A stretch of 15,775 nt of DNA, taken from UHGV virus genome UHGV-0129795, one strand, 5' to 3'. The translations under genes were made by a program, and so were the position numbers. The stretch comes from a virus. The notes below the pieces were generated by a model. That model made no database searches, was not told the origin of the DNA, and saw only the letters and a program-made list of their open reading frames with translations. Position 1 is the stretch's first letter. Each line of letters starts with the position of its first letter. Shown one piece after another: positions 1 through 15,775 of the stretch.

Positions 1-57
1 CGCCGGGTCGCTGTTACCGAGCGGCTGGTTATGTGTGAAAACTTCAGTAATTGCCAT
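1..57 (-). CDS. D: Head decoration protein D, N-terminal fragment (gene runs off the left edge)
   Basis: Minus-strand ATG at 57..55, 10 nt downstream of the C stop (67..69). Translation MAITEVFTHNQPLGNSDPA resembles the lambda gpD N-terminus as I recall it (..ETFTHYQPQGNSDPA..). Position after C is as in lambda. Confidence 0.75.
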   Translation of the reverse strand, partial: MAITEVFTHNQPLGNSDPA

Positions 58-66
58 GATAGCCTC

Positions 67-1410: not shown

Positions 1411-2983
1411 CTTGCTCCTCCTCGTTTGATTTTTTCACTCCGGCCTCAAAAGCTGCAGCGGCCCATGCCGGTGGTTTCAGACCCGCAGCACGACGCTCCA
1501 TGGTTTCCCGGACCTGCTGGGCAAAAATCTCCTGATAATCATCACCGCGTTTGGCGCACTCTTTTTCATACGTGCTGAGACCTGCCTCAATGAGCATGAC
1601 GGCCTCCTGTACCTCTTTCAGCCCGTCAATTGCCATTCGACCAGAGCCAATCCAGTTGGCATTCCCCCAGGCTGTTCTCGCCTCCTGGAAACTGAACCGG
1701 GCTTTCGAAGGAAGCGTGACCACGCGGCGGACAATCGCCTCTTCAAGCCAGCAAAGAAACATCTGACAGGCCTGTCGGGATGCCACAAACTTGCGACGCC
1801 CCATAAAGTACGCCCAGGACTCGTTAGCACTTGCGCGTGCGGTCGAGTAGCTCATCTGCGAATAGTTTCGCGAAAGCTGCTCATACGACACACCAAGCCC
1901 AGCGGCAATATAACGCAGCAGGGACTGTTCAAAAGTCGAGTAGCCGTTATCGGTATCCTGCGCCGACTGAAGGTTGAGAGAATCACCCGGCAACAGGTGT
2001 GGAACCCTTGCCCCACCCAGGCGAACAGGCGCAGCTGAGTAATAGGACGCCATTTCACCGAGCCAGCCCGTAAGTTTGCTCTGCTGCTCTTTATTATCCG
2101 CGCCGAGAATAAAGTCCATCGCCGATTGGGTATCCAGTTCACTCTCGATGGTAGCGGCATACATAGCCTTCACTATCGCGCTCTGGAGCTGGGTATTTTG
2201 CAGGGTATCGAGCATTTTCATCTGCTCCATCACGCTGTAAAACGCATTGGCCCCACGGGTCTGTCCATCCTCCATCGGTTCGAATACATGGATAAATGAA
2301 GGTCGACCGCCGGGTAGTTCGCGAGGAATGTAGGTCCAGTTCTGCGCCATCCAGCCGGGATAACCATCGTCGCTGACGTAATATCCCAGCGCAGCACCGC
2401 TATCATTTATTTTCACACCGGCGCGACAGTTCCGGGTATCACCGATATTATTCGGATTGCTGACGCGCTTCGGACTGACCATTTTGAACTGAGTACGGAA
2501 AAGACGCGTTGAATCGCTGTCCCAGGTCGCCTGCGTGCATAATTCACCGTTAAACGCGTGCATGGCCACACCTTCTCGGATCATCATCGTAAACGTTCGC
2601 TTACGCTCGGCATCAATCCCGCAAAAGTCGTCCTCGGCATACTCATTCCATGCAGCTTCCACATCCCGCGAGAATGCCCGTGAATCCTCCTCATTTATTC
2701 CCAGATAACGCCAGCTTGGTCGATAACTGAGTCTGAAAAATGACCCGACGATGTGGTCCTGGTGGAGCTGCACGGCGTTTGCCGCGTAGCCATTATTTCG
2801 CACCAGATCGTCAGCGCGGGCATTTCCGCGAGAATAGTTGGGTAGGAGTGCGGCATCTGCACTTTCACTCGGCGGATTCCAGCCTCGCAGCTGCCCACCA
2901 AACCCGCCTCCACCGCCATGATATCCTGCGTATTCCCGAAGGGATGTTTTCCCGTCAGGTCCCACCAAAGATGGTATTTTCAT
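1391..2983 (-). CDS. B: Portal protein B
   Basis: 530-aa ORF (lambda gpB is about 533 aa). N-terminus with a glycine run (..[21 protein letters not shown]..) as in lambda gpB. Sits between W and C; 4-nt overlap with W. Confidence 0.9.
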
Positions 2984-3186
2984 ACGTAAAACCCTGCTGG
3001 CCCCCGGCGTCGTGATGTGGTGCCAACCTGAGATTCAAGGTCAGCAATATATTTTTTGAGATCGCTGACTGAAGTGGCTGTAAATTCCACTCTTCGACCG
3101 TCTTTCTGTACCGTCGCCACGCGCTTTCCCATCATCAGGTCATGTAACGCAGCGCGCGCGGCATCCAGTTCAGTCTGTGTTGCCAT
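2980..3186 (-). CDS. W: Head-tail joining protein W
   Basis: 68-aa ORF, the same length as lambda gpW. The internal block [28 protein letters not shown] and the C-terminal [10 protein letters not shown] match gpW from memory. Start shares 1 nt with the A stop. Confidence 0.9.
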
Positions 3187-5108
3187 TATTCATCTCCAGA
3201 TAATGCCCGCGCGTAATCCGCCAGGGTCTTGTTATTGTTACGGCTGCCTTCTTCCTCCAGCAGGCTGGCCAGAAGTGAATCAAGATTTAGCTGCCAGCGG
3301 GATATGCTTATACGCAGCGCCGCCAGTGCATAAACAAAGCAATCGAGCGCCTCATTTCGTCGTTTTTTGCTGTCCCAGACGATCTTTTTCTTTCCGTCTA
3401 CCCATTTTTCCACCTGCTCTTCAGCTGTTAGTTGTTGGGCCTCTGTTAGATCGTAGATTTCTGGGTTATTCGGGAAATGAACCGCTCCCGCCAGCGGCTC
3501 GTCTCTTTGCGCCACCAGCGTGAAACGGTTATAAATCTGCTCTTTTGCGGTGTCTGTTCCTACCTCTGTGAGGTAAACACCATTCTTGTTACGCTTGCGT
3601 GGCATGTTCGCCACTGGCTTTCCATAAACCGACGCCCCCTTTATAGGGATCACACGAAACAGACCGTGTTTTTTTGAGCGGTTGTAGACGATGGTGGGAT
3701 CAATGCCGCCAATATCCCAGCAAGTGCGGGATATAACCATTTCGAGACCGTTCTGGCGCTTATACGTCCTGTTGATCGCTTCATCAACTCGAGCGAGAGT
3801 CGACTCATCATCATGACGACCCATAATGATAATTTTGTCGATAAGCCAGCTTTCCTCTCCCGGCCCCCATCCCCAAACACGCATTTCGTAACGGTCAAGC
3901 TGGGAGTCAATACCCGCTGTCAGATATGCCACTCGCTCCGGCACAGACGCTTCAAAGTGCTCTTTTCGTTCCGCTAAAACTTCAGCATCGGGTCGTTCAC
4001 CTATTTTCGGTTCCCACGTTTCGCCCAGGGTCGTGTTAACGAAAGTTTTTCGCTTACCCGTATCACCTTTTGTTTTTATCCAGTCCTTGACGATCTGCAC
4101 CCAGGTTGTGAACGGGCTATATGCGGTCCAGATGTGGAATGTAACGCTGTCAGGAGGTTCAATTTCGGTACCGGATGAAGAAAACCAGTTAAGGCCGTCT
4201 CGTGTCCAGATACCTGTTTCATCACAAATATACCTGGCCTCCAGAAATTCCAGCTCCTGTTGTTTAATCACACAGGCATTGTGTTCACAGAGGTAGTAAA
4301 CGCTGGCAGGTTCTCCCGGAGACCATTTGAAGCCAAATGGTGTCTCTTTATCACCGAATTTCAGATACTGCTCTTCCCCACAGTGTGGGCATGGAACATG
4401 GAACCGAAGAAAATGTTCAGACTCCTTAGCAGCTCTTTCTATCTGGCACGTACCTTTGACTTTCGGTGTAGATCCGCGAATGGATTTCGGCCATACAGAA
4501 CCCTCAATACGCTTATCACCCAGAAAGGTGGGAGAACCTTCTTTCTCGATGTCATCATCGAAAGCGGCGAGCTCGTCGTAGCCAGCCACATCAACTGATT
4601 TTTCACGGTAGTTTTTTGCAGCCTTACCGCCCAGGCACCAGAAACCACGACCATTCGAGAAACGCTTCATGCTCAGCGTATTGTCCCGGTGTTTTTTACC
4701 GTACCAGGGAGCAAGCGCCAGCAACGTCGGAATATCACGAATGGTCGGTTCTACATGAGACTTCATGAAGTTTTCAGCATCACCGTCGGTTGGTAACCAT
4801 ATTAGGGAGTTACGCTGTTTATGTTGGATGAAATATGCGTAAACGCCGAGCAACATTTTTGAGTAGCCGACACGAGCCGATTTAACGACATTCACCTCGC
4901 GAATATAGTCATTACCCATCGCATTCATAATTGCACGCTGAAATGGCAGTGTTTCCCAGCGCCCTTCCTGGTAGGCAGACTCTTTCGGGAGATAATAATT
5001 CTCATCTGCCCATTCAACTGCTGTTTGCGGTTGCGGCCGGTACAGCGAACGTAACCCCGCCCGCGCAGAGTGCTGCAGCCCCTTAACCTGACTGTTCGAT
5101 ATATTCAC
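3186..5108 (-). CDS. A: Terminase large subunit A
   Basis: 640-aa ORF (lambda gpA is 641 aa). N-terminus [54 protein letters not shown] and the following several hundred residues are near-identical to lambda gpA as I recall it. Overlaps Nu1 by 26 nt. Confidence 0.95.
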
Positions 5109-5628
5109 TCAGCAACCCCGGTATCATTTCATCCAGCGCAGCTGCCTTGTTCATGGCCTTAATGATGTCCTTCTTGAGGAAATCAATATGTCGGTTCTCC
5201 AGCTCCGGGAAGCGCCGCTGAACCGACAGAGGTATTCCATCGAGAATGCTGGCGATTTCTCCGGCTACCCGCGACAGCACGAACGTGCAGAATGCGGTCT
5301 CCACCACTTCAGCGGACTCTTTTGCATTTTTTAATTCCTGAGCGTCAGCCTGAGCTCGCGTAAGTCGGTGTCGCTCATATTCAATCGTGCCAGGTTGAAG
5401 ATCGGACTCAGAAGCGATACGGAGATCTTCAACTTCCTTCCGCAACTTTTCATTTTCTATAGCTGCATCGCGCGCACTGTACCATTCGATTGCAGCAGCA
5501 GATTCAAAGAGAACCTCATTACCTTTGCCACCACCGCGGACAACCGGCATACCTTGCTCCTGCCAGTTCTGAATCGTTCGGACGCTTACCCCGAAAATTT
5601 CGGATAAGCGTTTTTTGTTAACCTCCAT
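5083..5628 (-). CDS. nu1: Terminase small subunit Nu1
   Basis: 181-aa ORF, the same length as lambda Nu1. MEVNKK..IFG.S.RTIQNWQEQGMPV.RGGGKGNEVL and the C-terminal ..[18 protein letters not shown] match lambda Nu1. First gene downstream of cos, as in lambda. Confidence 0.95.
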   Translation of the reverse strand: MEVNKKRLSEIFGVSVRTIQNWQEQGMPVVRGGGKGNEVLFESAAAIEWYSARDAAIENEKLRKEVEDLRIASESDLQPGTIEYERHRLTRAQADAQELKNAKESAEVVETAFCTFVLSRVAGEIASILDGIPLSVQRRFPELENRHIDFLKKDIIKAMNKAAALDEMIPGLLSEYIEQSG

Positions 5629-5639
5629 GGCTTACTCCT

Positions 5640-5790
5640 GGCAAAAAACAGAGAAAGGAAACAATCAACGGTAAACTTCCGTTTTCCTTGCTCAGCATTT
5701 CCTTTCTGGAGAGAGGACGTTTTTAACAAAAACAATGAGTAAACAAGAAGAAGAACGGAAATGGCATAAACCAGAAAATTTTCATAAATA
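5640..5790. other. cosB-like terminase binding region (R1/R2/R3-like repeats)
   Basis: Lies between the Nu1 start and cosN. Contains AGAAAGGAAAC (about 5651..5665), CCGTTTTCCTTG (about 5680..5692) and AAGAAGAAGAACGGAAA (about 5744..5762), which resemble the lambda R1/R2/R3 gpNu1 sites as I recall them. AT-rich. Confidence 0.65.
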
Positions 5791-5794
5791 GCGA

Positions 5795-5825
5795 GAATCT
5801 GCGCGGACGCCGCCCCGTAACCTGT
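5795..5825. other. cosN cohesive-end site (predicted 12-nt overhang about 5804..5815)
   Basis: Plus strand reads agcgagaatctgcgcggacgccgccccgtaacctgtcggatcgccggaaaggaccc, collinear with the reverse complement of the lambda right-end/left-end junction (AGCGAAAACCCGCGAGGTCGCCGCCCCGTAACCTGTCGGATCACCGGAAAGGACCC). CGGACGCCGCCC occupies the place of the lambda overhang AGGTCGCCGCCC. Confidence 0.8.
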
Positions 5826-5916
5826 CGGATCGCCGGAAAGGACCCGCAAACGATAATAATTATCACTTACACATCGACACACGAAAACCAACCCATTTGG
5901 ACGTCTAAACGTCCAT

Positions 5917-6384
5917 TCATCGCGACAGCGCTGACCATATCGTGCCACCTGGCCGAAGACTCTTCTTCAGTTCCTCGGACACAACATCTGAGATCGCTTT
6001 TACCATTTCAGGGGATAGCTTCACGCCGGTCTTAATTTCGGGACAGATGCCAACATTGATGGCATAGCCTTTTCGTGGGTCGTTCTCTATCCGGCCAAAC
6101 TGAATATTTACAGAGCCACCAATATAACCACCAGCAGGAACACCAAAGCGCGTATTCACCAGGTGCTTAATGGCGAACTCCTGCCCTTCAGCGGTCAGGA
6201 AGGTGTAATAATTTTCCTTTTGATACTCCGTCGCGGTATGGCGTGTTTCAGCGAATCCCAGCTCTAGAAGCTCAGCAGCACCAGATTTGGCTGGCAGATC
6301 ACCAGACTGAAGCGCGCCACGGAAAAACAGCGCATACAGAACATCCGTCGCCGCGCCGGACAACGTGATAATTTTATGACCCAT
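5917..6384 (-). CDS. Hypothetical protein (155 aa), accessory gene adjacent to cos
   Basis: Complete ORF with an AAGGA ribosome-binding site 8 nt upstream of ATG. Not a lambda backbone gene and no family recognised by eye. Occupies the Rz-to-cos interval where lambda carries bor and other accessory genes. Confidence 0.6.
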   Translation of the reverse strand: MGHKIITLSGAATDVLYALFFRGALQSGDLPAKSGAAELLELGFAETRHTATEYQKENYYTFLTAEGQEFAIKHLVNTRFGVPAGGYIGGSVNIQFGRIENDPRKGYAINVGICPEIKTGVKLSPEMVKAISDVVSEELKKSLRPGGTIWSALSR

Positions 6385-6496
6385 GATTTATTTCCTTTTA
6401 GGCGTGAGCCTGTCGCACGGCAAAGCCGCCGAAAGTTAACGGTTTGCCCAGGCTCACAGCTGAAAGACTTTCTACGATGTGCGCGTGCGATGCGCA

Positions 6497-6520
6497 TAAA
6501 AAAGCCGCGTGATGGCGGCT
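6497..6520 (-). terminator. Rho-independent terminator (minus strand)
   Basis: Minus strand reads AGCCGCCATCACGCGGCTTTTTTAT: a 6-bp GC-rich stem (AGCCGC/GCGGCT), 6-nt loop, then a 6-T run. Confidence 0.6.
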
Positions 6521-6649
6521 ACTGTTTGAATATCAGGGTGTTGTTTCGTCTTAACCCTGGTTAATGTAGGCATTCAGCCCGTCGGTGGTGGGACACTGGC
6601 GCACTTAATAAAGAGTAATGGCTGATTACCTCAGAATAAGGAATCAAAA

Positions 6650-6910
6650 ATGTCAGAAGGTTTTGGTTTAAAAGAAAAGGTTGAGCAGTTAGAAAAAGAA
6701 TTAGCCGTACAAAAAATAGCAAATCAGCTTGCTTTTGGAGCACTAATTAAAGCAGTTAATGAGCTGTACCCGAACAAAGATTTATATGATGGGTTGACAA
6801 AATTTGTCCAGGAAAAACTTGATCCTGAACGTGTTAAAAACATCCCTAATCTTCACGAGGCCTTTCTAGAAGCTGCGAAAATACTGAGGACTGACGCATC
6901 TCCTGAATAA
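6650..6910 (+). CDS. Hypothetical small helical protein (86 aa) in an AT-rich island, opposite strand to the phage operons
   Basis: Plus-strand ORF with an AAGGA ribosome-binding site 8 nt upstream of ATG. Codon usage is visibly AT-rich compared with flanking phage genes. Heptad-like charged sequence (KEKVEQLEKELAVQKIANQL). No family recognised. Confidence 0.5.
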   Translation: MSEGFGLKEKVEQLEKELAVQKIANQLAFGALIKAVNELYPNKDLYDGLTKFVQEKLDPERVKNIPNLHEAFLEAAKILRTDASPE

Positions 6911-7278
6911 TTTTATCAACAAAGGCAGTTGTGTCCTCTTGCTTTTCATTCACAATGCATGTGACTGCCTTTTCTAAAGCTGTAATTCGTTCTTCAAGTG
7001 TCATACCCACTCCTGTCATTGGCTTCAAAATGATAAACCCCGCATTTGCAAGTCCTATTTATACCCCGCAGGGGATAAAAACCATATTATCCGCTTGCGG
7101 GGATAACCATTATCAAGCCCACCAGTAGATGGGCTTTGTAATGGCTACTGGCGGTCATTATGCTGATGTAAGGCTTCGGGTCAGATGGCATCGTAAAATG
7201 CGCTGGTGGGTGTGGTCTGTTCATGAATAATTCCAGTGCTCCATTATCGAAGCCCCTCAGTGAAGGGCTTCTGTAATG

Positions 7279-7464
7279 TCAGTCCCGGACGAACGTAACC
7301 TTTGTGGTTATCATTCGCCGCACAAGGCGCGTCGCTTCGCGTTGCATTTCATCAATTACTTTTGGTGTCAGCGGCTGACGCGCATATTTGCGCTCAATCT
7401 CTGCAAAAATCCCGTTCAGCGCCTCGCTGTCTGGTGGGATAACTTCAACGTTTAATCGTGCCAT
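7279..7464 (-). CDS. Hypothetical small protein (61 aa) downstream of Rz1
   Basis: In-frame ATG at 7464 within track ORF 7279..7551, preceded by an AGGA-like ribosome-binding site. Overlaps the Rz1 stop by 20 nt. A 7-bp stem hairpin follows its stop (about 7248..7270). No family recognised. Confidence 0.4.
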   Translation of the reverse strand: MARLNVEVIPPDSEALNGIFAEIERKYARQPLTPKVIDEMQREATRLVRRMITTKVTFVRD

Positions 7465-7723
7465 CGGTTTGTCCTGCCCTGTTGTTCTCGAAAGTCCTGA
7501 TATCAGCCTTATCCCTGTTGCACTGCGCCAGCGCTGACAGCAACGTGACATTCAGGTTAAGACTTGCTCCCCACGTAAACGGGTCGGGTAAATCTGGCTG
7601 GGGTGTTTCAGCCGTCAGGCTGGCTGGTAACGGAACTACCGGAACAGGCACGAAGACCGTTCGCGTATTCGTGCAGCCGCTTAACTGCGCCAGCAGGCAC
7701 AACACGAACAGCACAATCATCAT
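7445..7723 (-). CDS. Rz1: Outer-membrane lipoprotein o-spanin Rz1 (overlapping architecture)
   Basis: Tandem Met codons at 7723/7720 in the +1 frame of Rz. Hydrophobic signal MMIVLFVLCLLAQLSGC with a lipobox (LSGC). Proline-rich mature part (PVPVVPLPASLTAETPQPDLPDP). Starts inside Rz and extends past the Rz stop. Confidence 0.75.
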   Translation of the reverse strand: MMIVLFVLCLLAQLSGCTNTRTVFVPVPVVPLPASLTAETPQPDLPDPFTWGASLNLNVTLLSALAQCNRDKADIRTFENNRAGQTDGTIKR

Positions 7724-8000
7724 CCGCAACAGCAGCCTTGATATCGTTCTCGGTTCTCTGTGACTCCAGTGCGATCTGCTGCCTGACATATTGATTTGTC
7801 TCCAGAATGATGTTCGTTATTGCTACGGTGCGCAGGACATTCGCGGTGATGGTCTCAAAGGAATCAGCGCGCTGTTCTGCATCGTCAGCGCGCCGCTGTT
7901 CCTCCAGAAACTTTCCATGGTAATGATTCGCTGACCAGACAAGACCACCAGCAATACAAGCAATAAACGTTAAAATGAGCGCCCAATAACTCATCTTCAT
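7608..8000 (-). CDS. Rz: Inner-membrane i-spanin Rz
   Basis: 130-aa ORF with an N-terminal transmembrane helix (SYWALILTFIACIAGGLVW) and a charged, helical periplasmic domain. Immediately downstream of the endolysin (4-nt overlap) and contains the Rz1 start. Confidence 0.8.
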   Translation of the reverse strand: MKMSYWALILTFIACIAGGLVWSANHYHGKFLEEQRRADDAEQRADSFETITANVLRTVAITNIILETNQYVRQQIALESQRTENDIKAAVADDDCAVRVVPAGAVKRLHEYANGLRACSGSSVTSQPDG

Positions 8001-8611
8001 ACCAGCAGCGCCGCCCGCGCCTTGTTGTATCGGACCTTACGATCCTCAATACCGTTCAGACCGCCGTTAATGATGCGAGTAACACGATTAATATCGGCAC
8101 CGTAGATCATGCAGCCTTTAGAGGTGTAGAACCATGCAGCTGAGCGCGCAGCCTGTAGTTCCTGTTCCAGTTGTTCAGGTGAAGTCACCAAATCTAACTT
8201 CAGAGCAGCCCCGCAGGTGCGATAATTGTCGAGGCCAGTGATTTGAATTAACCCTCTGCCGCGATATTTCCAGCCGTCGCCGGGCGCTTTGTTACCCAGG
8301 CGGTTGCTATACACCAGATTGGCAATAGCATCCTGACGAGCTGCATGTCCGGATGTTCTGCCAAGGGCATCAGCCTGCTGCTGTGTGATCCTCTTTCCGA
8401 ACGTCGCCACCAGCGCAGATGGTGTGTAGTTCAAATTTTCAACTACAGCGCTAAAGCCACCAGACTCATGACCTACCTGAGCGATGAACATGGCCTGATC
8501 CGCGGGTGCTGTAATGCCGAATTCTTTCATCGCTGCATCTACTGGTTGAAACCAGCGCACAGCCAGTCCGGCGCTGATACCAGCCGCCTTTTGAAATAAT
8601 TGTTGGTTCAT
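7997..8611 (-). CDS. Endolysin, glycoside hydrolase family 19 (chitinase-like lysozyme)
   Basis: 204-aa ORF with AMFIAQVGHESGGF, ANLVYSNRLGN, GDGWKYRGRGLIQITGL.NYR, RSAAWFYTSKGCM and INGGLNGIEDR blocks, which match GH19-type Salmonella phage endolysins as I recall them. Sits between holin and Rz. Confidence 0.9.
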   Translation of the reverse strand: MNQQLFQKAAGISAGLAVRWFQPVDAAMKEFGITAPADQAMFIAQVGHESGGFSAVVENLNYTPSALVATFGKRITQQQADALGRTSGHAARQDAIANLVYSNRLGNKAPGDGWKYRGRGLIQITGLDNYRTCGAALKLDLVTSPEQLEQELQAARSAAWFYTSKGCMIYGADINRVTRIINGGLNGIEDRKVRYNKARAALLV

Positions 8612-8892
8612 TAGTGCCTCAGATGATCAACCAGGCGTGCAACGTTGCCTCTGACGGCCACCAGCACGGAAAGAAAAATAGTATTCGCCACGATAATGGG
8701 CCATGAGGAATGGGGATAAATCCCACAGAGATAGGCCAACGGAACAGCACTGTATGTAACAGTAATCAGCCAGGCTAAACGTGAAACCCAAGGACGATGC
8801 CGCGAATCACCACGACGATAAAACATCAGAGTAATAACAACACAAGCACATAACAGCGCGTTTATAGTTGCTGTCGGGTCATTTAGCTCCAC
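8611..8892 (-). CDS. Holin (small multi-TM membrane protein)
   Basis: 93-aa ORF with 2 to 3 hydrophobic helices and a charged C-terminus. Directly upstream of the endolysin, with overlapping stop and start (TAATG). Confidence 0.7.
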   Translation of the reverse strand: MELNDPTATINALLCACVVITLMFYRRGDSRHRPWVSRLAWLITVTYSAVPLAYLCGIYPHSSWPIIVANTIFLSVLVAVRGNVARLVDHLRH

Positions 8893-9265
8893 CTGAACCT
8901 CCCCGGCGCGTTATGAGCGCCACCAGCGACCCGATATCCTGATTATTCAGGAACGTCAGGATCTTAACGGCTAAAGCAGATACGATTACGGCACCAATGG
9001 CATCCAGAGGTTTATCACTGTATCCGGTCAAGCTTGCCAGCTTGGAGCCAACCAACCCAGAGCAAAGGATCCCGGCAATATACGACACGATAAAATATGC
9101 CAGTCGGCGCGATGCGCTCAGATCCGCTGCTGTTGCTATGTAGAATACAGCCCCTGCAAATGCGCCAAATACAACGCCGTAATCAGTTCCGGTCAGCAGT
9201 CCATAAACACTGGCACCCGTCAGGGCACCACCAGCCAGCCCAGTACCGGAAATTGGATCGGACAT
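8879..9265 (-). CDS. Holin-like membrane protein (second holin or antiholin candidate)
   Basis: 128-aa ORF rich in Gly/Ala with about 4 predicted transmembrane segments. First gene of the lysis cassette; overlaps the next holin gene by 14 nt. Confidence 0.6.
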   Translation of the reverse strand: MSDPISGTGLAGGALTGASVYGLLTGTDYGVVFGAFAGAVFYIATAADLSASRRLAYFIVSYIAGILCSGLVGSKLASLTGYSDKPLDAIGAVIVSALAVKILTFLNNQDIGSLVALITRRGGSGGAK

Positions 9266-9377
9266 TTAGCCCCCTCTTAATTGCTGTGAGTCCTCTCAGG
9301 TATGAGGGGAAATAGGCTCAGGCTTCACGGGTTGGATTTATCAACAAAGCACGTAGCGGATGATTACCGTGAGCCGG

Positions 9378-9408
9378 AAATAAAAAAGCCCCAGCGGGTG
9401 CCGGGGCG
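9378..9408 (-). terminator. Rho-independent terminator (minus strand), tR'-like, upstream of the lysis cassette
   Basis: Minus strand reads GCCCCGGCACCCGCTGGGGCTTTTTTATTT: an 8-bp GC-rich stem (one G-U pair), 4-nt loop, then a T run. Lies between the accessory membrane-protein gene and the first holin gene. Confidence 0.75.
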
Positions 9409-9499
9409 AGTTATAGATAAGTGCATGCTCTAGCAGCAAATCACTGTATTTGATATCGTTAAATCGCCAAAAATAACCCTATCAAACATGGAGAATTAT

Positions 9500-9649
9500 A
9501 TGAGTGAATCAAACAAACCATCTGGAGAAAATAAGCCTCAACCCGCACCACAGCCTAAACCGGCTCCACAGCCAGCCGAAAGAAATCTGAGGACAGGTTA
9601 TACCTTTGTTGCCGATTCTGCTGAAAACATCAGAAAAAAAGGTAAGTAA
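9500..9649 (+). CDS. Small hypothetical ORF (49 aa, Pro/Lys-rich), convergent with and overlapping the 189-aa membrane-protein gene
   Basis: ATG at 9500 preceded by GGAG 8 nt upstream (catGGAGaattatATG). Translation MSESNKPSGENKPQPAPQPKPAPQPAERNLRTGYTFVADSAENIRKKGK. Below the 60-aa cutoff of the supplied ORF track. Low complexity, so it could be non-coding. Confidence 0.3.
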   Translation: MSESNKPSGENKPQPAPQPKPAPQPAERNLRTGYTFVADSAENIRKKGK

Positions 9650-10199
9650 GTACTGAGATTACAAGTGCACAAACAGGGGTGAGGATTGTAGCGATCCTTA
9701 CCCTTTCTAGTTCTCGGCCTATTCTGGCATTCTCTTTTTTACTCATTTCAGCCATTCTGGTTAAATCCGCAAGCCGGTAGCGCCGCAAGACGTTCAATGT
9801 TGAACGCTTTCCTGAAAATCCTTTCGACTCAAAACCAGTGTAATCATCTTCAGTAAACCCTTTATAGCCATCATGGTAAAGCGCATAGGGTGTCGATGAC
9901 ACGAGAGCTCGTGACCTTACAACGAGGACGCAGCGAACAAGATAAGCCGCACACATTGCCCAGTAGACTAAAAAAACAGACATTCCAGCGGTGAGGTAAT
10001 CAAAACCTGTACGTTGCGTTAATAACAAAAATGACGAGCCCACGCCAGCAATGAGTATACTCAATAACTTCTGGCCATTTTCTTTGTTTAGTGCGTTGGA
10101 CTGGTGAATTTCGCGTATACAATCCTCGCCCTGCTTCTCCAGAAAAGCAACGAGTTCGTCGTCCGCATCCAAAAAGTAATCATCGGGTAGATTATTCAT
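9630..10199 (-). CDS. Hypothetical membrane protein (189 aa, about 3 TM helices), accessory gene between Q and the lysis cassette
   Basis: ATG at 10199 with a GAGG ribosome-binding site. Acidic N-terminal segment of about 45 aa, two adjacent hydrophobic helices, a basic cytoplasmic-type segment of about 75 aa, and a C-terminal hydrophobic helix. AT-rich relative to the phage backbone. No family recognised. Confidence 0.65.
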   Translation of the reverse strand: MNNLPDDYFLDADDELVAFLEKQGEDCIREIHQSNALNKENGQKLLSILIAGVGSSFLLLTQRTGFDYLTAGMSVFLVYWAMCAAYLVRCVLVVRSRALVSSTPYALYHDGYKGFTEDDYTGFESKGFSGKRSTLNVLRRYRLADLTRMAEMSKKENARIGRELERVRIATILTPVCALVISVLTYLFF

Positions 10200-10402
10200 T
10201 CCCCAACCTCACATCCTGTAATGCATCAATTTTACCTGAATGTCTCGAACCTTGGTATTGCTGTCTCCAGAAACGCAAAAACCCCACGGTGTTATCCGCA
10301 GGGCTTGAAACGAAGGCATTAACCCATCGTTGGGACAAAATTAACACAGATTCGGGAAAAGTAAATAGCCCAAGACAAAATCATAGGCTATCGCTATAGG
10401 CG

Positions 10403-11185
10403 TTACCGCGTTATCTGCTTAAGCTGTTTTTCGGCCCAGGACTCTTCGATATCAAATTTCGTGATCAGCAGGTCGTAGAATGGCTTAACAGACTTTTTCC
10501 AGGTGTCCAGGCTAATGGCGTCAGTAATCTGGCATACAGCAGCATAGGCTTCAGTCGACGGAAGTCGTTCATACCCACGCCCTCCGCAGCGCTTACAGTC
10601 AGCCAGAACAGGAACGCCCTGTTTCTCAGTAAGAGCCTGGTTCACTGCCTTGCCGCGCCCATGGCAATCACTGCAAGAAGCACTAACCACACCAGAGCCA
10701 TTACACTTTTTGCATAGCACTTTGATGGATTCTTTGACCTTCACCATCCCGGACACGGTCATTTTCCCTTCTGGCTTACGGAATTTATTGGTAAACACGT
10801 CAGCCTCAATGAAGCCCTGACCGTCACAACAATCGCACTGCTTCACGCTGGCAGCGCTGCGGGAATAGTCCTCAAAAGCGAAGGTGGCCAACTGGTGCAT
10901 CACCTGAGGTTTAACCGCGGCACCGAGCTTACGCAGTGCGGCAACCTTGTCGCATTTTGTCATCGCGTACTCAGCCAGCAGACCGATCGCCCGATCCCGG
11001 TCGTTATTGCTTATGCCCATCTTGCCGAGGAAGGCGCTGTAACCCATTGCGGCGCGTTCCTGCGTCATGCCCATGGCAGCCATTATGTCGGTACCGGTCA
11101 GTGAATCGGAGGCGGTAGCGCGCGGAGAATCGCTAATCAGTGTGGATTTAGCGAAGTGGTATTTCACTGTGTTTTCAAGGTTCAT
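10403..11185 (-). CDS. Q: Late-gene antitermination protein Q
   Basis: 260-aa ORF immediately upstream of the lysis region and downstream of rusA, the canonical Q position. Cys-rich C-terminal half with several CxxC pairs (CDCCDGQG, CKKCNGSG, CSDCHGRG, CKRCGGRG) typical of Q-family zinc-binding antiterminators. Assignment is by synteny and motif, not alignment. Confidence 0.7.
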   Translation of the reverse strand: MNLENTVKYHFAKSTLISDSPRATASDSLTGTDIMAAMGMTQERAAMGYSAFLGKMGISNNDRDRAIGLLAEYAMTKCDKVAALRKLGAAVKPQVMHQLATFAFEDYSRSAASVKQCDCCDGQGFIEADVFTNKFRKPEGKMTVSGMVKVKESIKVLCKKCNGSGVVSASCSDCHGRGKAVNQALTEKQGVPVLADCKRCGGRGYERLPSTEAYAAVCQITDAISLDTWKKSVKPFYDLLITKFDIEESWAEKQLKQITR

Positions 11186-11318
11186 AGCGCTTCTCCAGCA
11201 TAAGTTTTCACGTAATTCTTCAGTATCCGGTAGTCCGTTAGCACAGAGCCGGGAAAGTGGTATAAGCGAAGCCGCTGCCAGCGAACGCGGAGGTGATCGG
11301 AAAAACAGGATTCAAATG

Positions 11319-11681
11319 TCATACGGCCTCCAGCCCGGTGATTGTCAGTTCCAGCTTTCCACCTTTGGTAACGGGCATCTTCACAACGCGATAATCAACG
11401 ACCTGAGCATCGTCCAGCCAGAAACCTGCTTTGGTGAGTGCGTCAAAAGCGGCCTTTTGCAGATTATCCAGGTCACGGCGACGGCGATCCGGCATGTGGC
11501 ACTCAATGCGGATTTTCACAGGCATAGCCAGACCGATATCCAGCATTGCGTTTTTAATGATTCGGGCGACGTTATCGCGGTATGCCTGCCCTTCTGCGCT
11601 GATGTGCGTGCGCCCGCGATTATGGCGGTAGTAGCGGTTATTGCTCGGCGGCCAGGGCAATGTGATGTTGTAAGTATTCAC
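11319..11681 (-). CDS. rusA: Holliday-junction resolvase RusA
   Basis: Translation from a GTG start at 11681 gives (M)[112 protein letters not shown], near-identical to E. coli RusA (120 aa) as I recall it. The track ORF extends upstream only because there is no in-frame stop. Confidence 0.9.
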
Positions 11682-11968
11682 GCCTTGATTACCCCCTCTT
11701 TCAGCCAGATAACCTGCGTTCTCGCCATACCTTCCAGCGCGCATTCTTTAGCATACGCAGCATCGACAAAATGTGTACGGCGGTCGATCTCGTCGTGACA
11801 GGCAGAGCATGCAATGGTGGCAATCAGATCAGGCGGTTTGATTCCGGTGCCACATAACCCGGCCAGGCGAATGTGCGCCAGTACAGACGTTTCCGGGTTA
11901 CCGTTGCAGACGCCGGGAATTCGAACCTGACAATCACGACCACGAGCCTCTTTGCGTAAATTTGCCAT
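11678..11968 (-). CDS. YbcO-like protein (DUF1364, Cys-rich putative nuclease of lambdoid nin regions)
   Basis: 96-aa product from the ATG at 11968 (alternative ATG at 11995). [85 protein letters not shown] matches E. coli DLP12 YbcO from memory. Overlaps the rusA start (GTGA), as in DLP12. Confidence 0.75.
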
Positions 11969-11970
11969 GC

Positions 11971-12180
11971 TCACCCCCACGCCTTGCTTTGCCATACCCG
12001 GCTCGGGCGAGGCGCGTTATCGCCTTCCGGCAATTGCGCGCTGACGGTCCAGGTGATGTTGTCGCGATTCAGGCTGCGCTCTGTCTTTACACCGCGCGCC
12101 CGGTATTTCTCCACCAGCTCGTCGGCCTGTTCGGTGGTGCATTCGTGATGGTGGAACCAGGAAAATTTCATCGCCATCAC
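11971..12180 (-). CDS. Hypothetical small protein (69 aa), nin-region
   Basis: Start is coupled to the upstream gene (ATGA overlap at 12177..12180), and its stop lies 2 nt before the ybcO-like ATG. No family recognised. Confidence 0.5.
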   Translation of the reverse strand: MMAMKFSWFHHHECTTEQADELVEKYRARGVKTERSLNRDNITWTVSAQLPEGDNAPRPSRVWQSKAWG

Positions 12181-12773
12181 CCCGCAAAGCTCATCAGCTG
12201 GGCGGCGGCGTTTTCTGCCTCTTCACAACTGCGAAATGATCGGGAGAGTATCCATCGCCACAGAACATCGAGCGCGGCTTTGTACAGCTGCTGGAACTCA
12301 GTTTCATCCATATTTGCGAATGAGATACTGCGGGGATGTTTGCGGAGGGTGCCGTCAGGCAGCTGAATGGCGTCGTAATGGCCGGACTCAATAGTGACCC
12401 ATGCACGATATGCATCGAATGACTTACAGGCGCAGATGCTACCAGTACGCTTATCGGCAATGCGGTCAAGGTATTGCTCAGCCGCATCCAGCAGTGCGCC
12501 TTCGTTACCACCATAGGAAGCCAGGAATTTAGCATAGCCGGTAACCAGCTTGCGTTCATTGGAGGAGATTGCCCCGCCAGTTGGTTCCCAGTATTCAAAA
12601 CCAAGATTCAGCAGAGCGAAAAAGCGGCGGTGAAACGCAGGATTGCGTACCTGTTTAAAGTCGGCCTCCAGCACGGCACCGAGCTTAATTTTTGATTGCA
12701 GTAATTCGCTGGTCTCCGGCGTGGCCGGGATCAGAATTCCTGAAGATTGCTTTATTAGTTGTAAGTGCGCCAT
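12177..12773 (-). CDS. Conserved lambdoid nin-region protein, DUF1367-like (family assignment tentative)
   Basis: 198-aa ORF, first gene after the terminator at 12864..12886. Resembles proteins I recall as DUF1367 from enterobacterial lambdoid prophages; not verified. Confidence 0.55.
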   Translation of the reverse strand: MAHLQLIKQSSGILIPATPETSELLQSKIKLGAVLEADFKQVRNPAFHRRFFALLNLGFEYWEPTGGAISSNERKLVTGYAKFLASYGGNEGALLDAAEQYLDRIADKRTGSICACKSFDAYRAWVTIESGHYDAIQLPDGTLRKHPRSISFANMDETEFQQLYKAALDVLWRWILSRSFRSCEEAENAAAQLMSFAG

Positions 12774-12863
12774 GATGTTCTTCTTGGCGCAGATGGTCGT
12801 CAGTTTCTCAGGCTGACAGGGATATTATGGCTTGGCATACAGGCAAAAGCAATTTAACGCCGA

Positions 12864-12886
12864 CAAAAAAAGCCTCCGAAGAGGCT
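12864..12886 (-). terminator. Rho-independent terminator (minus strand) separating the upstream operon from the nin/Q block
   Basis: Minus strand reads AGCCTCTTCGGAGGCTTTTTTTGTCGG: a 6-bp stem (AGCCTC/GAGGCT), a tetraloop, then a 7-T run. On the plus strand the same hairpin is followed by a weaker T-rich tract. Confidence 0.7.
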
Positions 12887-12905
12887 TGTATGTTATTGAT
12901 TATAT

Positions 12906-12919
12906 TGTGACATGTCACA
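12906..12919. repeat. Perfect 14-bp palindrome TGTGACATGTCACA overlapping the stop codon of the 112-aa gene
   Basis: Read directly from the sequence at 12906..12919; it is its own reverse complement. The stop codon of ORF 12915..13253 (TGA, minus strand) lies inside it. Confidence 0.9.
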
Positions 12920-13253
12920 CGACTAACTTCACATCATGCCAGCCACGCGTAACCCAGCATTGCGAATCACCGGCGCATGGACACGACTTAACTGGCGGCA
13001 CATCACCGCATTTACCGCAGCGGTTCGCACTGATTGACTTAATGCGACCACGAACTCGGGCATCATCCTGACGGATCAGTAACGCGATGTACTCGCTCAT
13101 TTCATACGGCGCTCGCCCCGGACGGCGTGATGCACAATTGCGCTCCAGCATATCCATTTCCTGCGTATCAAGTATGAGCTCAAATTTACGCCCACCAGCA
13201 GCGGCTTGCCGGGCGCGCTGGGCAGCTTTGCGTTCTGCTGCGGTCTTAGCCAT
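12915..13253 (-). CDS. Hypothetical protein (112 aa): putative ribbon-helix-helix-like N-terminus plus Cys-rich C-terminus
   Basis: N-terminus ..ERKAAQRARQAAAGGRKFELILDTQEMDMLERNCASRRPGRAPYEMSEYIALLIRQ fits a beta-strand/helix/helix pattern as in Arc/CopG-type DNA binders (pattern-level only). C-terminus carries CGKC..CPC..C. Overlaps the upstream gene by 8 nt. Confidence 0.55.
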   Translation of the reverse strand: MAKTAAERKAAQRARQAAAGGRKFELILDTQEMDMLERNCASRRPGRAPYEMSEYIALLIRQDDARVRGRIKSISANRCGKCGDVPPVKSCPCAGDSQCWVTRGWHDVKLVV

Positions 13254-13533
13254 TATCCGCCCCTTTTGGCTTGTGGATTCGAATAGTCATACCGCTTTCA
13301 GTGGTGATCACAATAGCTTCCCCTGGCTGGATATCCCCAAGGCGAAACGCATCGTAAAAGGAATCCAAAGCCAGCGACTTCTCATCCTTACGATTCAACC
13401 ACCGCCAGCCTTTGCGAAGTGCTATGCCGAAAATCCATTGCCCTGCCTTGTAAGCCATAAAAAACCAGATGAGCACCACCTGAAAGAAGACAATCCAGTC
13501 AATAATCGTATATTTCGCGAAAGCGCCCATCAC
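13246..13533 (-). CDS. Hypothetical small membrane protein (95 aa)
   Basis: Hydrophobic N-terminal 40 aa (IIDWIVFFQVVLIWFFMAYKAGQWIFGIAL) and a polar C-terminal domain. 4-nt overlap with the upstream gene and 8-nt overlap with the downstream gene (translational coupling). Confidence 0.55.
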   Translation of the reverse strand: MMGAFAKYTIIDWIVFFQVVLIWFFMAYKAGQWIFGIALRKGWRWLNRKDEKSLALDSFYDAFRLGDIQPGEAIVITTESGMTIRIHKPKGADNG

Positions 13534-14411
13534 TTCACCTCCTGCCGCGGCGCTGCTGGCAGCGATTTAATCCAAGCGGCTGCCAAAAGACGACTCCACG
13601 CATCCTTAGAATCCTCAGCGCCGTAATCAATAATCGAATCGAATTCGTCTAGAATGGCTATCGTAGGCTCAACCGGCACTGCAACCCAACCATCCGGAAT
13701 CGCCGGAGAGTTACCCTCAAGCACCTCGCGCACGGCTTCAAACGCCGGAGTGACATACTCAACATCCTCTTCGCATACGGCATCCAGTGTGTTTAGCGTA
13801 TCGCCCATGAACGACATAGCCTGTAGAGCCTTTTCCAGCGCATCGATAACATTGGCTGGCAGCTCATCACGCTGGCTTACAGGTTCGGCTGCGAGCAGTC
13901 GCTCTAACTCCTCGCGAGCATCAGCACATCTGAAAGCGCTGAAGGTTCCACGACTGCCGTCGCTATCCAGCAGGCGATTGATGGCATCGCGTACCTCGGC
14001 AGGCAACTTGTAAGGCTGGCTTACAGGTTCATTGCTTGATGCTTGCTTGATATCTTCGCCTTGACCCGCACAATCACTGGTTTTAATGCTTGATGATTGC
14101 TTGGCTGCTTTACCCTGAAGCATGGCGGCGCGGCAGGCTTCAAATACCGCATTGTTAAACCTCACACCTTCAAAAAAGATTTTCCCATTATGCTCAAACC
14201 AGAACTCGGACTTCTCAACATCGGGTAAGAGGCTTTTAAGCACGCCCTCAGACACTGATAACACCGCTGGCTGCGGTAACTGTGGTGCTGTGCTAGTGAG
14301 CATGGACATCAACGCGCAGATGGTGTCCTCGCTGATTTCAAACATACCACTGGCGTTCTGCGTCGAGGCTTTCAGGTCTTCGATAATGCTCTGTTTCGTA
14401 AATTCAGCCAT
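13530..14411 (-). CDS. Hypothetical acidic protein (293 aa) with an internal duplicated module
   Basis: Complete ORF in the operon. Contains two related segments, EPVSQPYKLPAEVRDAINRLL and EPVSQRDELPANVIDALEKAL, about 48 aa apart, also visible as a repeated 16-nt string in the DNA. No family recognised. Confidence 0.6.
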   Translation of the reverse strand: MAEFTKQSIIEDLKASTQNASGMFEISEDTICALMSMLTSTAPQLPQPAVLSVSEGVLKSLLPDVEKSEFWFEHNGKIFFEGVRFNNAVFEACRAAMLQGKAAKQSSSIKTSDCAGQGEDIKQASSNEPVSQPYKLPAEVRDAINRLLDSDGSRGTFSAFRCADAREELERLLAAEPVSQRDELPANVIDALEKALQAMSFMGDTLNTLDAVCEEDVEYVTPAFEAVREVLEGNSPAIPDGWVAVPVEPTIAILDEFDSIIDYGAEDSKDAWSRLLAAAWIKSLPAAPRQEVK

Positions 14412-14414
14412 ACC

Positions 14415-14882
14415 CTACCCCCCCACCTTAGTGATGATACCATCGGCGATTTTTTTCGGGCTATATGCTGCTATGCATTGCTCATATCTAGCCTGGTCGT
14501 TTGTCTGTCCGTAGCTAAAACCATGCTGAAGGCCATGGCGAAACGCGCTATCCTGCAATTTGTCAGATGTTTCAATCTTCGCCTCCAGCTCTGCTATCCG
14601 ACGACTTCCATCAGCAATAACGCCTTCGTAATACTCACGTTGTTCTGCTATGCGCTTCTCTGCGGCTTCCAGCTCATCCAGCAGCGCCAAGACGGTAGCT
14701 GGATTGGCTGCGGCGATGAATCGTTTATTGGCGCGATTATCTGGTCCTGAGCATGATGCTATGTAGTAATTGGCGTTCAGTCCGGCATCAGCAATTACTC
14801 CATGGTAGTCATCAGCACACCATTCGCCTGGTGTTGCATTTTCTGCCGCCAGTCGCAGAGCCTGATAGTTAATCTCGCTCAC
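14415..14882 (-). CDS. Ead/Ea22-like family protein (tentative)
   Basis: 155-aa ORF with the motif ..AANPATVLALLDELEAAEKRIAEQ.. followed by a helical segment (AELEAKIE), resembling prophage proteins I recall as Ead/Ea22-like. Overlaps the upstream gene by 14 nt. Confidence 0.5.
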   Translation of the reverse strand: MSEINYQALRLAAENATPGEWCADDYHGVIADAGLNANYYIASCSGPDNRANKRFIAAANPATVLALLDELEAAEKRIAEQREYYEGVIADGSRRIAELEAKIETSDKLQDSAFRHGLQHGFSYGQTNDQARYEQCIAAYSPKKIADGIITKVGG

Positions 14883-15594
14883 TGGTTGCCTCCTGGTTCA
14901 CCAGCTGTTGCACGAGATTTTTATGACGGGCAAAAGTGCGCACGGCGCCCTGCAGTTTCGTCAGCTGCGCCAGCCTGTTTTTGGTGCGACGAATTTCGCG
15001 GGAGATCATCCGGGCCGCCGGAATGGACATGCTGGCGGCGCACCCTTCAGTGAACGCGGGGATTTCGCTGACAATCTGCGCGATATCTTTCTCCGGGCCG
15101 GCCTTCGTCAGTTCATGCTCTACGCTGACTGCCTCTGCTGCTGGTGCTGGTCCTGCTGCTGGTGCTGCTGGTGCCGGCAATGACCAGGTTACTCCCCTGC
15201 CCTGCCCGTTCTTCACCACGACGCCCTGGCGGGCCAGTGAACCCATCCATGCGGTGATGCCGCGAGCGTTACGCCCAAATTCCCTGGCGATGCCCACAGT
15301 ATCCATGGCACCGCGTTGCGCCAGCAGGCGGGTGATCCCCTCTACGCTGATCTCCTTCGGCTCTTCGCCGCGCAATGGCGCTTTAGCGGCGACAGCCGGA
15401 GCTGGTGCAGGGGTGTTCTTCTGGTCCTTCAGCCTGCCAACAAACCAGCCGCCGTCGGAGAAATCACACATGCCCTGCTCGCGCTGTTCGCGCAGCATGT
15501 TCAGTGCTTCCACAGGTTCGATATCCAGACGGGCTGCCACTTCGCGGTATGTCGCCCGGCCCATTTTTTCCAGTGCTTGAATGACGGTTTCCAT
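14869..15594 (-). CDS. Hypothetical DNA-binding protein (241 aa), two winged-helix-like segments joined by an Ala/Pro-rich linker
   Basis: ATG at 15594 has a strong AGGAGA ribosome-binding site 6 nt upstream. N-terminal TYREVAARLDIEPVEALNMLREQ and central GITRLLAQRG..TVGIAREFGRNARGITAWMGSLARQG look like HTH/wHTH segments. The same frame stays open from 15595 to the window edge, so an N-terminal extension or fusion cannot be excluded. Confidence 0.55.
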   Translation of the reverse strand: METVIQALEKMGRATYREVAARLDIEPVEALNMLREQREQGMCDFSDGGWFVGRLKDQKNTPAPAPAVAAKAPLRGEEPKEISVEGITRLLAQRGAMDTVGIAREFGRNARGITAWMGSLARQGVVVKNGQGRGVTWSLPAPAAPAAGPAPAAEAVSVEHELTKAGPEKDIAQIVSEIPAFTEGCAASMSIPAARMISREIRRTKNRLAQLTKLQGAVRTFARHKNLVQQLVNQEATSERD

Positions 15595-15775
15595 GTGTTC
15601 TCCTGTTAAATCAGACCAGCTGCTTTGCGTTTTTTGTATTCGGCCATCAGCATCTCTGCTGGTGTGGGGCCGCTGGCTTTAGCCGGCGCGGCGATGGCGC
15701 GACGGATTGGCGGTACGGGCTTACCCGCGGCGACGCGCTCTTCCCATCCGGCCAGGACCTTGCCGGCGGCCTGGC

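Follow-up and report, generated by a model that had tools for sequence, protein, structure and literature searches.

UHGV virus genome UHGV-0129795 was analysed as a single stretch of 15,775 nucleotides (the window), which is part of an Escherichia coli lambdoid prophage with its late genes on the minus strand. Between the gene for the late antiterminator Q and the first holin gene (9266..10402) lie two genes that face each other: one on the minus strand for a 189-amino-acid (aa) inner-membrane protein, and one on the plus strand for a 49-aa proline-rich protein. Below we describe these genes, the regulatory elements predicted around them and their distribution, and we weigh the possibility that the pair forms an autonomous accessory module.

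The membrane-protein gene (9630..10199, minus strand) has a GAGG 7 nt before its ATG, and its product matches phrog_11870 (E 5.6e-84). It lies in a segment with a GC content of 44.2%, compared with 52-53% for the Q and first holin genes and 51.9% for the window, in agreement with an earlier reading of the unannotated letters (the original prediction), which had placed an AT-rich gene here. Relatives of the protein form 115 clusters at 90% identity, all but a few of them 189 aa long, which belong to the Enterobacterales and extend down to 43% identity; the family overall comprises about 100 clusters at 50% identity, unannotated and nearly all 160-200 aa in length.

Hydropathy analysis of this protein gave two clear hydrophobic segments and one weaker one. 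AlphaFold models the protein (pLDDT 82.5) as a hairpin of three helices, at residues 14-61, 68-92 and 134-188. In the model, the first helix would join an acidic cytoplasmic part to transmembrane segment (TM) 1, the latter with a conserved GxGSSF motif; the second corresponds to TM2; a basic loop of about 70 aa, partly ordered, follows; and the long third helix ends in TM3. The N-terminus carries a net charge of -7 and the 74-residue loop one of +5, while the periplasmic loop is 6 residues long. The N-terminus and the 74-residue loop are accordingly placed in the cytoplasm by prediction, with the 6-residue loop outside. About three TM helices is a reasonable estimate for a protein modelled in this way. 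The rough count of three that had been made from the letters thus stood, as hydropathy and modelled helices agree with it; a search for a similar fold gave nothing (Foldseek against BFVD, E ≤ 0.001).

The absence of a recognisable family, also stated at the outset, was upheld: neither protein matched Pfam or NCBIfam (E ≤ 1) or PADLOC (5027 models, E ≤ 10). Among PHROGs the membrane protein matched only phrog_11870, labelled 'unknown function', and no holin or antiholin family; clear homology to a holin or antiholin, named originally as the sign of a lysis-timing protein, was not found in Pfam, NCBIfam or PHROGs. The protein likewise gave no profile match to SieB (PF14163), RexB, Imm or the PADLOC defence systems. 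The best hit of a profile search of PDB sequences was GpsB, at a non-significant E of 0.03, and when distant members were used for a profile search, no relative with a Pfam annotation came up. A Pfam scan of 49 such members picked up 8xMP in five (best E 0.019), below threshold, which we do not take as homology; no relevant literature on '8xMP' was found. An effector of the SLATT/PycTM kind was also considered: PycTM (E 0.016) and YLATT each appeared in one of the 49, neither at the gathering threshold, and around the module lie Q, holin or repressor genes but neither a cyclase gene nor a sensor gene. GiPD474 (Gifsy) and HepS were set aside as unrelated systems. A literature search by accession and PHROG identifier returned no mention of either protein.

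The small gene (9500..9649, plus strand) has a GGAG 7 nt upstream, matches phrog_14506 and is called by PGAP in E. coli LR-33. It converges on the membrane-protein gene and overlaps the 3' end of the latter by 20 nt. An opposite-strand Pro-rich open reading frame (ORF) of 49 aa had been noted originally, and these features bear it out; it was overlooked as a partner, and comparison of related loci indicates that it is a conserved partner gene with a promoter motif and a 3' hairpin of its own. A profile search collected 96 clusters of the small protein, whose taxonomic range is that of the 189-aa family and whose locus tags adjoin those of the larger protein (for example Cedecea RJE46_10710/10715 and Pantoea IFU25_00500/00505). 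Every intact Enterobacterales locus that we inspected has an ORF of 41-53 aa convergent on, and overlapping, the 3' end of the 189-aa homolog. These loci include Enterobacter (56% identity in the larger protein), Yersinia (57%), Serratia (three species), Trabulsiella (two species), phage pPE4, phage 613R10, E. coli W619 and a metagenomic homolog of 43% identity; the ORF is present as well in a module of 24% identity beside a cI/cro/cII region.

The small proteins share the motifs MS(E/Q)SNKP, a Pro/Gln-rich middle and F..GR..VGDSAE..RKK.K. In pairwise Nei-Gojobori comparisons dN/dS was 0.08-0.44 (11 pairs gave a value; in the twelfth dS was saturated). Because dN/dS is low and because third positions vary in the VGDSAE codons (outside the overlap), the small ORF is, judged by these substitution patterns, a protein-coding gene under purifying selection. 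We also considered that it might be a chance antisense frame, which the dN/dS values, the third-position variation and the conserved Shine-Dalgarno sequence rule out. Both genes of the module are under protein-level constraint. The AlphaFold model of the small protein is disordered (pLDDT 67).

Each gene is preceded by a conserved motif of its own. The probable promoter of the membrane-protein gene is the motif GACATTCAGGTAAAAT (10229..10244, minus strand), singled out by its conservation, with a -10 element TAAAAT at 10234..10229 and a weak -35. In 10 of 13 diverse loci the consensus cAtt.aGgTAaaat stands about 22-34 nt ahead of the ATG, and it can still be recognised in the remote locus L016 (L numbers denote related loci compared with the window); this -10-like motif persists even where no late promoter lies upstream. 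Ahead of the small gene lies the conserved motif TTGATATCGTTAAATCGCCAAAAATAAC (9449..9477, plus strand): 12 of 14 loci have TcTGaTATyGTTaAATCGC.cA.AAatAAC, which is more tightly conserved than the coding sequence, and even the 24%-identity module L015 retains the core. For a classic -35/-10 promoter the motif has the wrong spacing and hexamers; it is best read as a probable extended -10 promoter, TGnTATYGT (9451..9459), with TG at 9451-9452 and TATCGT at 9454..9459. Many alleles, L009 (about 5740..5765), L014 and L018-L024 among them, have an inverted repeat CCAGA-N6-7-TCTGG just upstream of this -10 motif, which is absent from the allele in the window; an operator is one possibility, and an RNA hairpin formed in the long sense transcript another.

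Twenty-six nucleotides past the stop codon of the small gene, within the codons for RVRIATILTP of the membrane-protein gene, lies a predicted RNA hairpin on the small-gene strand (9676..9704, plus strand). Its folding energy is -18.9 kcal/mol on the plus strand against -11.0 on the minus strand, and in 13 of 15 loci the small-gene strand gives the clearly more stable hairpin of the two, owing to G-U pairs. In most loci the hairpin lies 20-27 nt downstream of the small stop codon. In a gap-free alignment of 14 alleles, 86% of the cells pair, four pairs covary, and one pair is G-U in 13 of the 14; the covariation score was reached by none of 500 shuffles, and pairing drops to 38-51% in slid controls. 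One covarying pair (U-A/U-G/C-G) forces coupled V-to-A and T-to-A changes in RVRIATILTP. As its tail is not uniformly U-rich, we take the hairpin to be probably the 3' end or a stabiliser of the small transcript and not an established terminator. From the upstream motif and the hairpin we therefore predict a small mRNA of about 240 nt that would be antisense to the last ~75 nt of the membrane-protein mRNA.

Upstream of the module, immediately after Q, lies the late promoter pR' (10338..10365, minus strand), identified by alignment with HK620 and HK633. It has a -35 element TTTACT (10365..10360), a 16-nt spacer and an extended -10, TGT-TAATTT (10346..10338). Aligned column by column, the annotated pR'/qut regions of HK620 and HK633 match the window at 10365..10326, and almost every base of the block is the same in mEp237, HK225 and KL53. 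The sequence between -35 and -10 is unlike that of HK620, a difference expected because the Q proteins are of different families (PF03589 in the window). A -10-like element, AACGAT (10326..10331, minus strand), stands at the transcript start, with a probable +1 near 10331; the surrounding CCCAACGATGG is identical in the annotated pR'/qut region of HK620 and HK633. We take AACGAT to be the lambda-type sigma-70-dependent pause, or qut component, of the late transcript start. The window thus has the promoter after Q, homologous to annotated pR', and the -10-like start element of a lambda-type late region.

A stable hairpin with a U-run follows at about +25 to +52 relative to the pR' start (10269..10306, minus strand). 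It is an 11-bp stem (10306..10279) with a T-rich tail, TTGCGTTTCT, found by terminator scan and folding (-15.8 kcal/mol, z -4.1). The stem is kept in mEp237, HK225 and KL53 except for single-base differences at two stem positions. The HK225 record labels this hairpin a rho-independent terminator; in HK620 the equivalent hairpin was annotated as 'qut', and the late terminator, tQ, was assigned to a site about 600 nt beyond it. On the combined evidence of fold and conservation the hairpin is probably a terminator directly after pR' (the equivalent of tR'), situated between pR' and the membrane-protein gene. A second late-strand terminator closes the slot: an 8-bp GC stem at 9407..9388 followed by TTTTTTATTT (9378..9407, minus strand; -16.1 kcal/mol). 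The terminator scan found 6 sites in all against 2.6 expected, and the flanking hairpins reached z scores between -3.5 and -4.1 when compared with shuffles. When each stem is folded by itself, the two come out equal in stability, at -16.1 and -15.8 kcal/mol: flanking hairpins had been predicted and both are present, but the description of the upstream one as weaker was mistaken.

Because the membrane-protein gene lies beyond this probable first terminator, constitutive expression from pR' is unlikely unless the hairpin is leaky. The proposal that the gene is transcribed constitutively from pR' in the lysogen as far as the strong terminator is probably wrong for this reason: a probable terminator, equally stable, stands between promoter and gene. 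From the geometry we infer that the membrane-protein gene is the first gene of the Q-antiterminated late operon, which pR' transcripts should reach only after modification by Q. The unmodified pR' transcript (window 10270..10331, minus strand) is predicted to be a two-hairpin RNA of only ~55-65 nt. By analogy with the 6S RNA of lambda, which at 194 nt is much longer, it could be a small RNA in its own right. The arrangement as a whole resembles the pR'-qut-tR' region of lambda in having a promoter, an AACGAT start element and a predicted terminator immediately after Q, with a short constitutive RNA predicted; Stx phages likewise make a short transcript, StxS, from their late control region. 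The window differs from lambda and HK620 in the family of its Q and in the interval between -35 and -10, and from the lambda late region in a second terminator, about 0.9 kb further on, that brackets a cargo slot.

The limits of that cargo were set by comparison with relatives that share both flanks. In BLAST comparisons with KL53, HK225 and mEp237, only 10369..10265 and 9392/9417..9309 of the Q-to-holin interval are shared, which leaves 9393..10264 as the segment absent or replaced. The block downstream of the slot (9309..9392, minus strand) is 86-92% identical in all three. Between the shared blocks, E. coli KL53 has about 255 nt with no annotated gene; HK225 and E. coli MB06022 have a 136-aa gene on the opposite strand; mEp237 has a 213-aa gene; and phage Louie has two opposite-strand genes. 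A megablast search of 5426 complete E. coli genomes found the entire segment in 6 and parts of it in 278, and 9309..9392 is one of the two pieces held by the flank-only matches among the 278. The 3' half of the second terminator and its tail belong to the shared backbone; this terminator closes the slot in all relatives, and L009, L013 and L014 have an equivalent one after the module. By these alignments the Q-to-holin slot is a genuine hotspot, as the original prediction of a variable cargo site had held, and both terminators are part of the phage backbone and not of the insert, which is itself mobile.

Other contents of the slot were recorded in the same comparisons. The 'empty' slot of KL53 (L004, ~1584..1839, minus strand) is still about 255 nt of GC-rich sequence, and mEp237 shares part of its start; neither an Rfam family nor a tRNA was found in it, and one 76-nt piece folds no better than shuffles. 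In Enterobacter roggenkampii (L005, 5832..6139) four tRNA genes (Met, Leu, Thr, Gly) follow the module in the same slot, an arrangement that echoes the tRNA genes in the Q-stx interval of Stx phages. A tRNA scan of six related loci, the window not being among them, found these four genes in L005 and no tRNA in the other five; an Rfam scan of the window and three related loci gave no match at the gathering threshold. In phage pPE4 (L013, 3983..4408) a gene for a TerB-domain protein adjoins the module, and in Serratia sp. M24T3 (L018, 4863..6438) two glycosyltransferase-like genes do so. The slot can therefore hold several cassettes in tandem.

Some allele of the module occurs in 242 of the 5426 complete E. 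coli genomes (~4%), with similarity that runs from promoter motif to promoter motif; the rows sampled from these genomes are mostly about 70% identical to the allele in the window. One sampled E. coli locus, inspected in detail, lies in a Rac-like prophage beside trkG, as does the module of phage 613R10. A scan of GTDB genomes gave nine loci, two of them pseudogenes. The Q gene upstream of the module encodes a PF03589 protein in most loci and a DUF1133 (PF06530) protein in Rac-like prophages and Serratia rubidaea. The holins downstream belong to at least four families (Phage_holin_8/3_7, 2_1, 3_1 and 3_3), lambda-family holins also being represented. The module is found away from lysis genes as well, beside a cI region and after a mom gene. 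Given the different Q and holin families and the non-lysis sites, we therefore regard it as an autonomous accessory module and not as a holin-specific lysis regulator.

Remote homologs of the membrane protein (19-27% identity) lie between the early-left operon and a cI-like repressor gene, convergent with the repressor operon, and one remote homolog, in Lautropia, stands among ordinary chromosomal genes. Distant relatives beside cI-like repressor genes, head-on to the repressor operon, were seen in L015 (532..2699) and L029-L033; this is the position in which lambda keeps rexAB. In E. coli W619 the backbone flanks are 93% identical to those of the window, while the module is 49% (larger protein) and 36% (small protein) identical, a divergence within one backbone that is typical of specificity or immunity genes. 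Phage vB_Apl-pPE4 (L013), deposited as an Actinobacillus phage, has a module 58% identical to that of E. coli among neighbours of enterobacterial type, and its host assignment may be worth checking.

Along the late strand the window has the gene order Q, two holin-family genes, GH19 endolysin, spanins, terminase and portal. The Q gene (10403..11185, minus strand) encodes a 260-aa protein of the 'Antiterm' family with a DnaJ-like zinc-finger region (PF03589, E 2.2e-45; phrog_127, E 5.7e-104), annotated by PGAP as 'antitermination protein'. The first lysis gene downstream of the slot is the holin gene of the Phage_holin_8 family (8879..9265, minus strand; PF16931, E 1.4e-34; phrog_198), which is followed by a second holin-family gene, Phage_holin_3_7 (8611..8892, minus strand; PF05449, E 7.3e-20; phrog_217). 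Two further ORFs, 10192..10347 (minus strand) and 10091..10399 (plus strand), were taken as spurious, as they overlap the pR'/terminator block or run antisense. Positions 9100..10600 are 100% identical to E. coli LR-33, in which PGAP calls both module ORFs hypothetical proteins. The match to LR-33 is confined to 7149..12792, and we therefore regard the prophage of the window as a mosaic: 1..7148 and 12793..15775 have no LR-33 match, and the metallopeptidase and DUF2280 genes of LR-33 are replaced in the window. An 86-aa ORF (6650..6910, plus strand), which runs opposite to the late operon and separates the lysis genes from the small terminase gene, may be a further accessory gene.

To account for these features we propose, tentatively and at somewhat short of an even chance, that the segment 9393..10264 is an autonomous two-gene moron lying between the two terminators that follow pR', and that it encodes a membrane effector of the defence or toxin type restrained by the small gene. 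In the lysogen, pR' transcripts would stop at the first terminator (10306..10279) and the module would run on its own two facing promoters. The ~240-nt transcript of the small gene (from about 9466 to about 9705) would lie antisense to the last ~75 nt of the membrane-protein mRNA. Transcript and disordered, basic-tailed small protein would together keep the membrane protein low or inactive, the basic tail possibly binding the acidic N-terminus of the latter. After induction, Q-modified polymerase would pass both terminators, the membrane protein would become the first product of the late operon, and head-on transcription would override the small gene. The membrane protein would act from the cytoplasmic face of the inner membrane, with the small gene as its cognate restraint, and the module would be an accessory of the abortive-infection or toxin-antitoxin kind, outside the lysis machinery. 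The function is the least certain part of this explanation.

Several observations weigh against the two-gene moron as just described. The remote homologs of 19-27% identity have no Pro-rich partner, and the membrane protein can therefore function without one. A sigma-70 scan called no promoter in 8800..11300 and the -35 elements are poor; it was conservation alone that pointed to the two promoters of the module. The tail of the hairpin is U-poor in many loci, so that it may not be a terminator, and the hairpin lies within conserved codons, its covariation being supported by only 14 sequences. None of the 5027 PADLOC defence models matched. Lastly, the membrane-protein gene points the same way as the late operon, as would be expected just as well of a genuine late function.

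That last point leads to an alternative in which the membrane protein, as the first Q-dependent product, modulates lysis timing or the state of the membrane in the manner of an antiholin, and the small gene silences leaky expression in the lysogen. The late-operon orientation, the place immediately upstream of the holin and downstream of pR' and tR', and the recurrence of this position in most Enterobacterales loci are what such a lysis accessory would show. We nevertheless consider it distinctly unlikely. The module is accompanied by holins from at least four unrelated families and by Q proteins from two; it, or its remote homologs, also stands beside cI/cro, after mom and at early-left operon/repressor sites; it is absent from close relatives that keep Q, pR' and both terminators but have other lysis genes; and no holin or antiholin homology was found. 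A role in superinfection exclusion, in which the lysogen produces the protein and incoming phages are stopped at DNA entry or at an early stage (like P22 SieA or HK97 gp15) while the small gene tunes its level, is unlikely in our judgement, although it would suit prophage cargo in a known moron slot, a predicted inner-membrane product, a conserved -10-like motif that could permit expression in the prophage state, and alleles that diversify within one backbone. Exposure to the periplasm, where injection blockers usually act, is limited to the 6-residue loop and the end of the C-terminus; searches of Pfam, PHROGs and PADLOC gave no match to SieB or any other exclusion family; and exclusion genes are not known to come with an obligate partner that converges on them and has a conserved antisense hairpin.

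The pair might also be lysogenic-conversion cargo for host physiology, such as a stress or envelope function, with the small gene as independent cargo packed tail-to-tail. Toxin and metabolic genes are among the morons of this slot, genes of the TerB-like and glycosyltransferase types adjoin the module in L013 and L018, and the Lautropia homolog sits amid ordinary chromosomal genes. This reading is nonetheless improbable, since strict co-occurrence and a conserved 3' overlap are maintained across 24-94% identity, and since the strand-specific hairpin in the overlap zone argues for functional coupling and not for chance packing. As for expression, the route proposed originally would have pR' act constitutively, with a useful fraction of transcripts passing the first hairpin, expressing the membrane-protein gene in the lysogen and stopping at 9407..9378. 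The 'qut' label in HK620, with tQ some 600 nt on, gives some reason to doubt the efficiency of the first hairpin as a terminator, and the second terminator does close the slot in all relatives. We give this route very little credence: the first hairpin has an 11-bp stem, -15.8 kcal/mol and a U-run, compared with -16.1 for the second; it is conserved in four phages bar the single-base differences at two stem positions; it is labelled a rho-independent terminator in HK225; and the -10-like motif of the module is retained even without an upstream pR'. A bolder form of the two-gene moron, which we regard as speculative and rather doubtful, is a previously undescribed prophage switch, in which a convergent gene of dual function (antisense RNA plus disordered protein) restrains a three-TM effector until late Q transcription, or an infecting phage that upsets the balance, switches the two head-on promoters over and releases it.

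How the pair relates to known systems can be judged on several sides. Lambdoid morons, in the sense introduced by Juhala and Hendrix, include stx in the Q-S interval of Stx phages, HK97 gp15 and lambda bor and lom. The module resembles them as extra DNA of lower GC between elements that are adjacent in relatives, with a composition distinct from the neighbouring phage genes, and it shares the Q-to-holin slot with stx. It is bounded by terminators and has promoter-like elements of its own: conserved -10-like motifs precede both genes, with weak -35 elements and no sigma-70 call. It differs in being a convergent two-gene unit and not a single promoter-gene-terminator cassette, in the uncharacterised families of its proteins, and in that the bounding terminators are those of the phage backbone.

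Type I toxin-antitoxin loci with convergent transcripts that overlap at their 3' ends include bsrG/SR4 and txpA/RatA of Bacillus subtilis and ralR/RalA of the E. coli Rac prophage. By analogy, the module may be likened to them as a prophage-borne locus in which a membrane-targeted product would be opposed by a short convergent transcript; this predicted transcript would start from a promoter of its own, carry a structured hairpin at its 3' end and be complementary to the last part of the membrane-protein mRNA, a geometry that fits the 20-nt overlap of the coding sequences and the hairpin 26 nt on. Unlike type I toxins, which are typically peptides of <60 aa, its 'toxin' would be a 189-aa protein with three TM segments and large cytoplasmic parts, and its antisense unit encodes a protein under purifying selection and is not a non-coding RNA. 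The membrane protein has in common with lambda RexAB, P22 SieA/SieB and T4 Imm that these are small inner-membrane accessory proteins of temperate phages, and its remote homologs adjoin a repressor gene, as rexAB does in lambda. There is, however, no sequence or profile similarity to any of them, the orientation is opposite to the repressor operon, and the 49-aa disordered partner is not a sensor like RexA.

The nearest conceptual precedent, by our analogy, may be Tai/Ati of phi80: there a defence gene lies in a phage moron locus, the antidote gene ati belongs to the late operon controlled by Q, tail assembly is what Tai acts on, and the locus is upstream of the packaging genes (PMC11364771). 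Both would be prophage accessory pairs in which Q-dependent late transcription governs one member but not the other; the proteins are unrelated, and no convergent overlap is described for Tai/Ati in the text consulted. The module of the window is an unannotated variant of the moron theme and of the theme of membrane proteins under antisense control.

The Q-to-holin slot is the one that carries the Shiga toxin genes, and its other cargo and the expression of that cargo affect virulence and phage-phage competition. Those who read this region should not count the two bracketing terminators as cargo, since they are part of the phage backbone. The module is present in ~4% of complete E. coli genomes and in many Enterobacterales prophages, without annotation anywhere. 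Its facing promoter motifs, 3' overlap, strand-specific hairpin and small ORF would amount to a compact way of tying expression to the decision to leave lysogeny for lysis. Should the membrane protein be a lysis accessory, it would be able to serve alongside several holin families that are unrelated to one another. If the pair is a switch in which RNA and protein both restrain the effector, it would be a hybrid of type I and type II toxin-antitoxin logic serving abortive infection or the timing of host killing. And if the module is of the defence or toxin type, it would represent a new family of membrane effectors together with an unusual regulator, part RNA and part protein.

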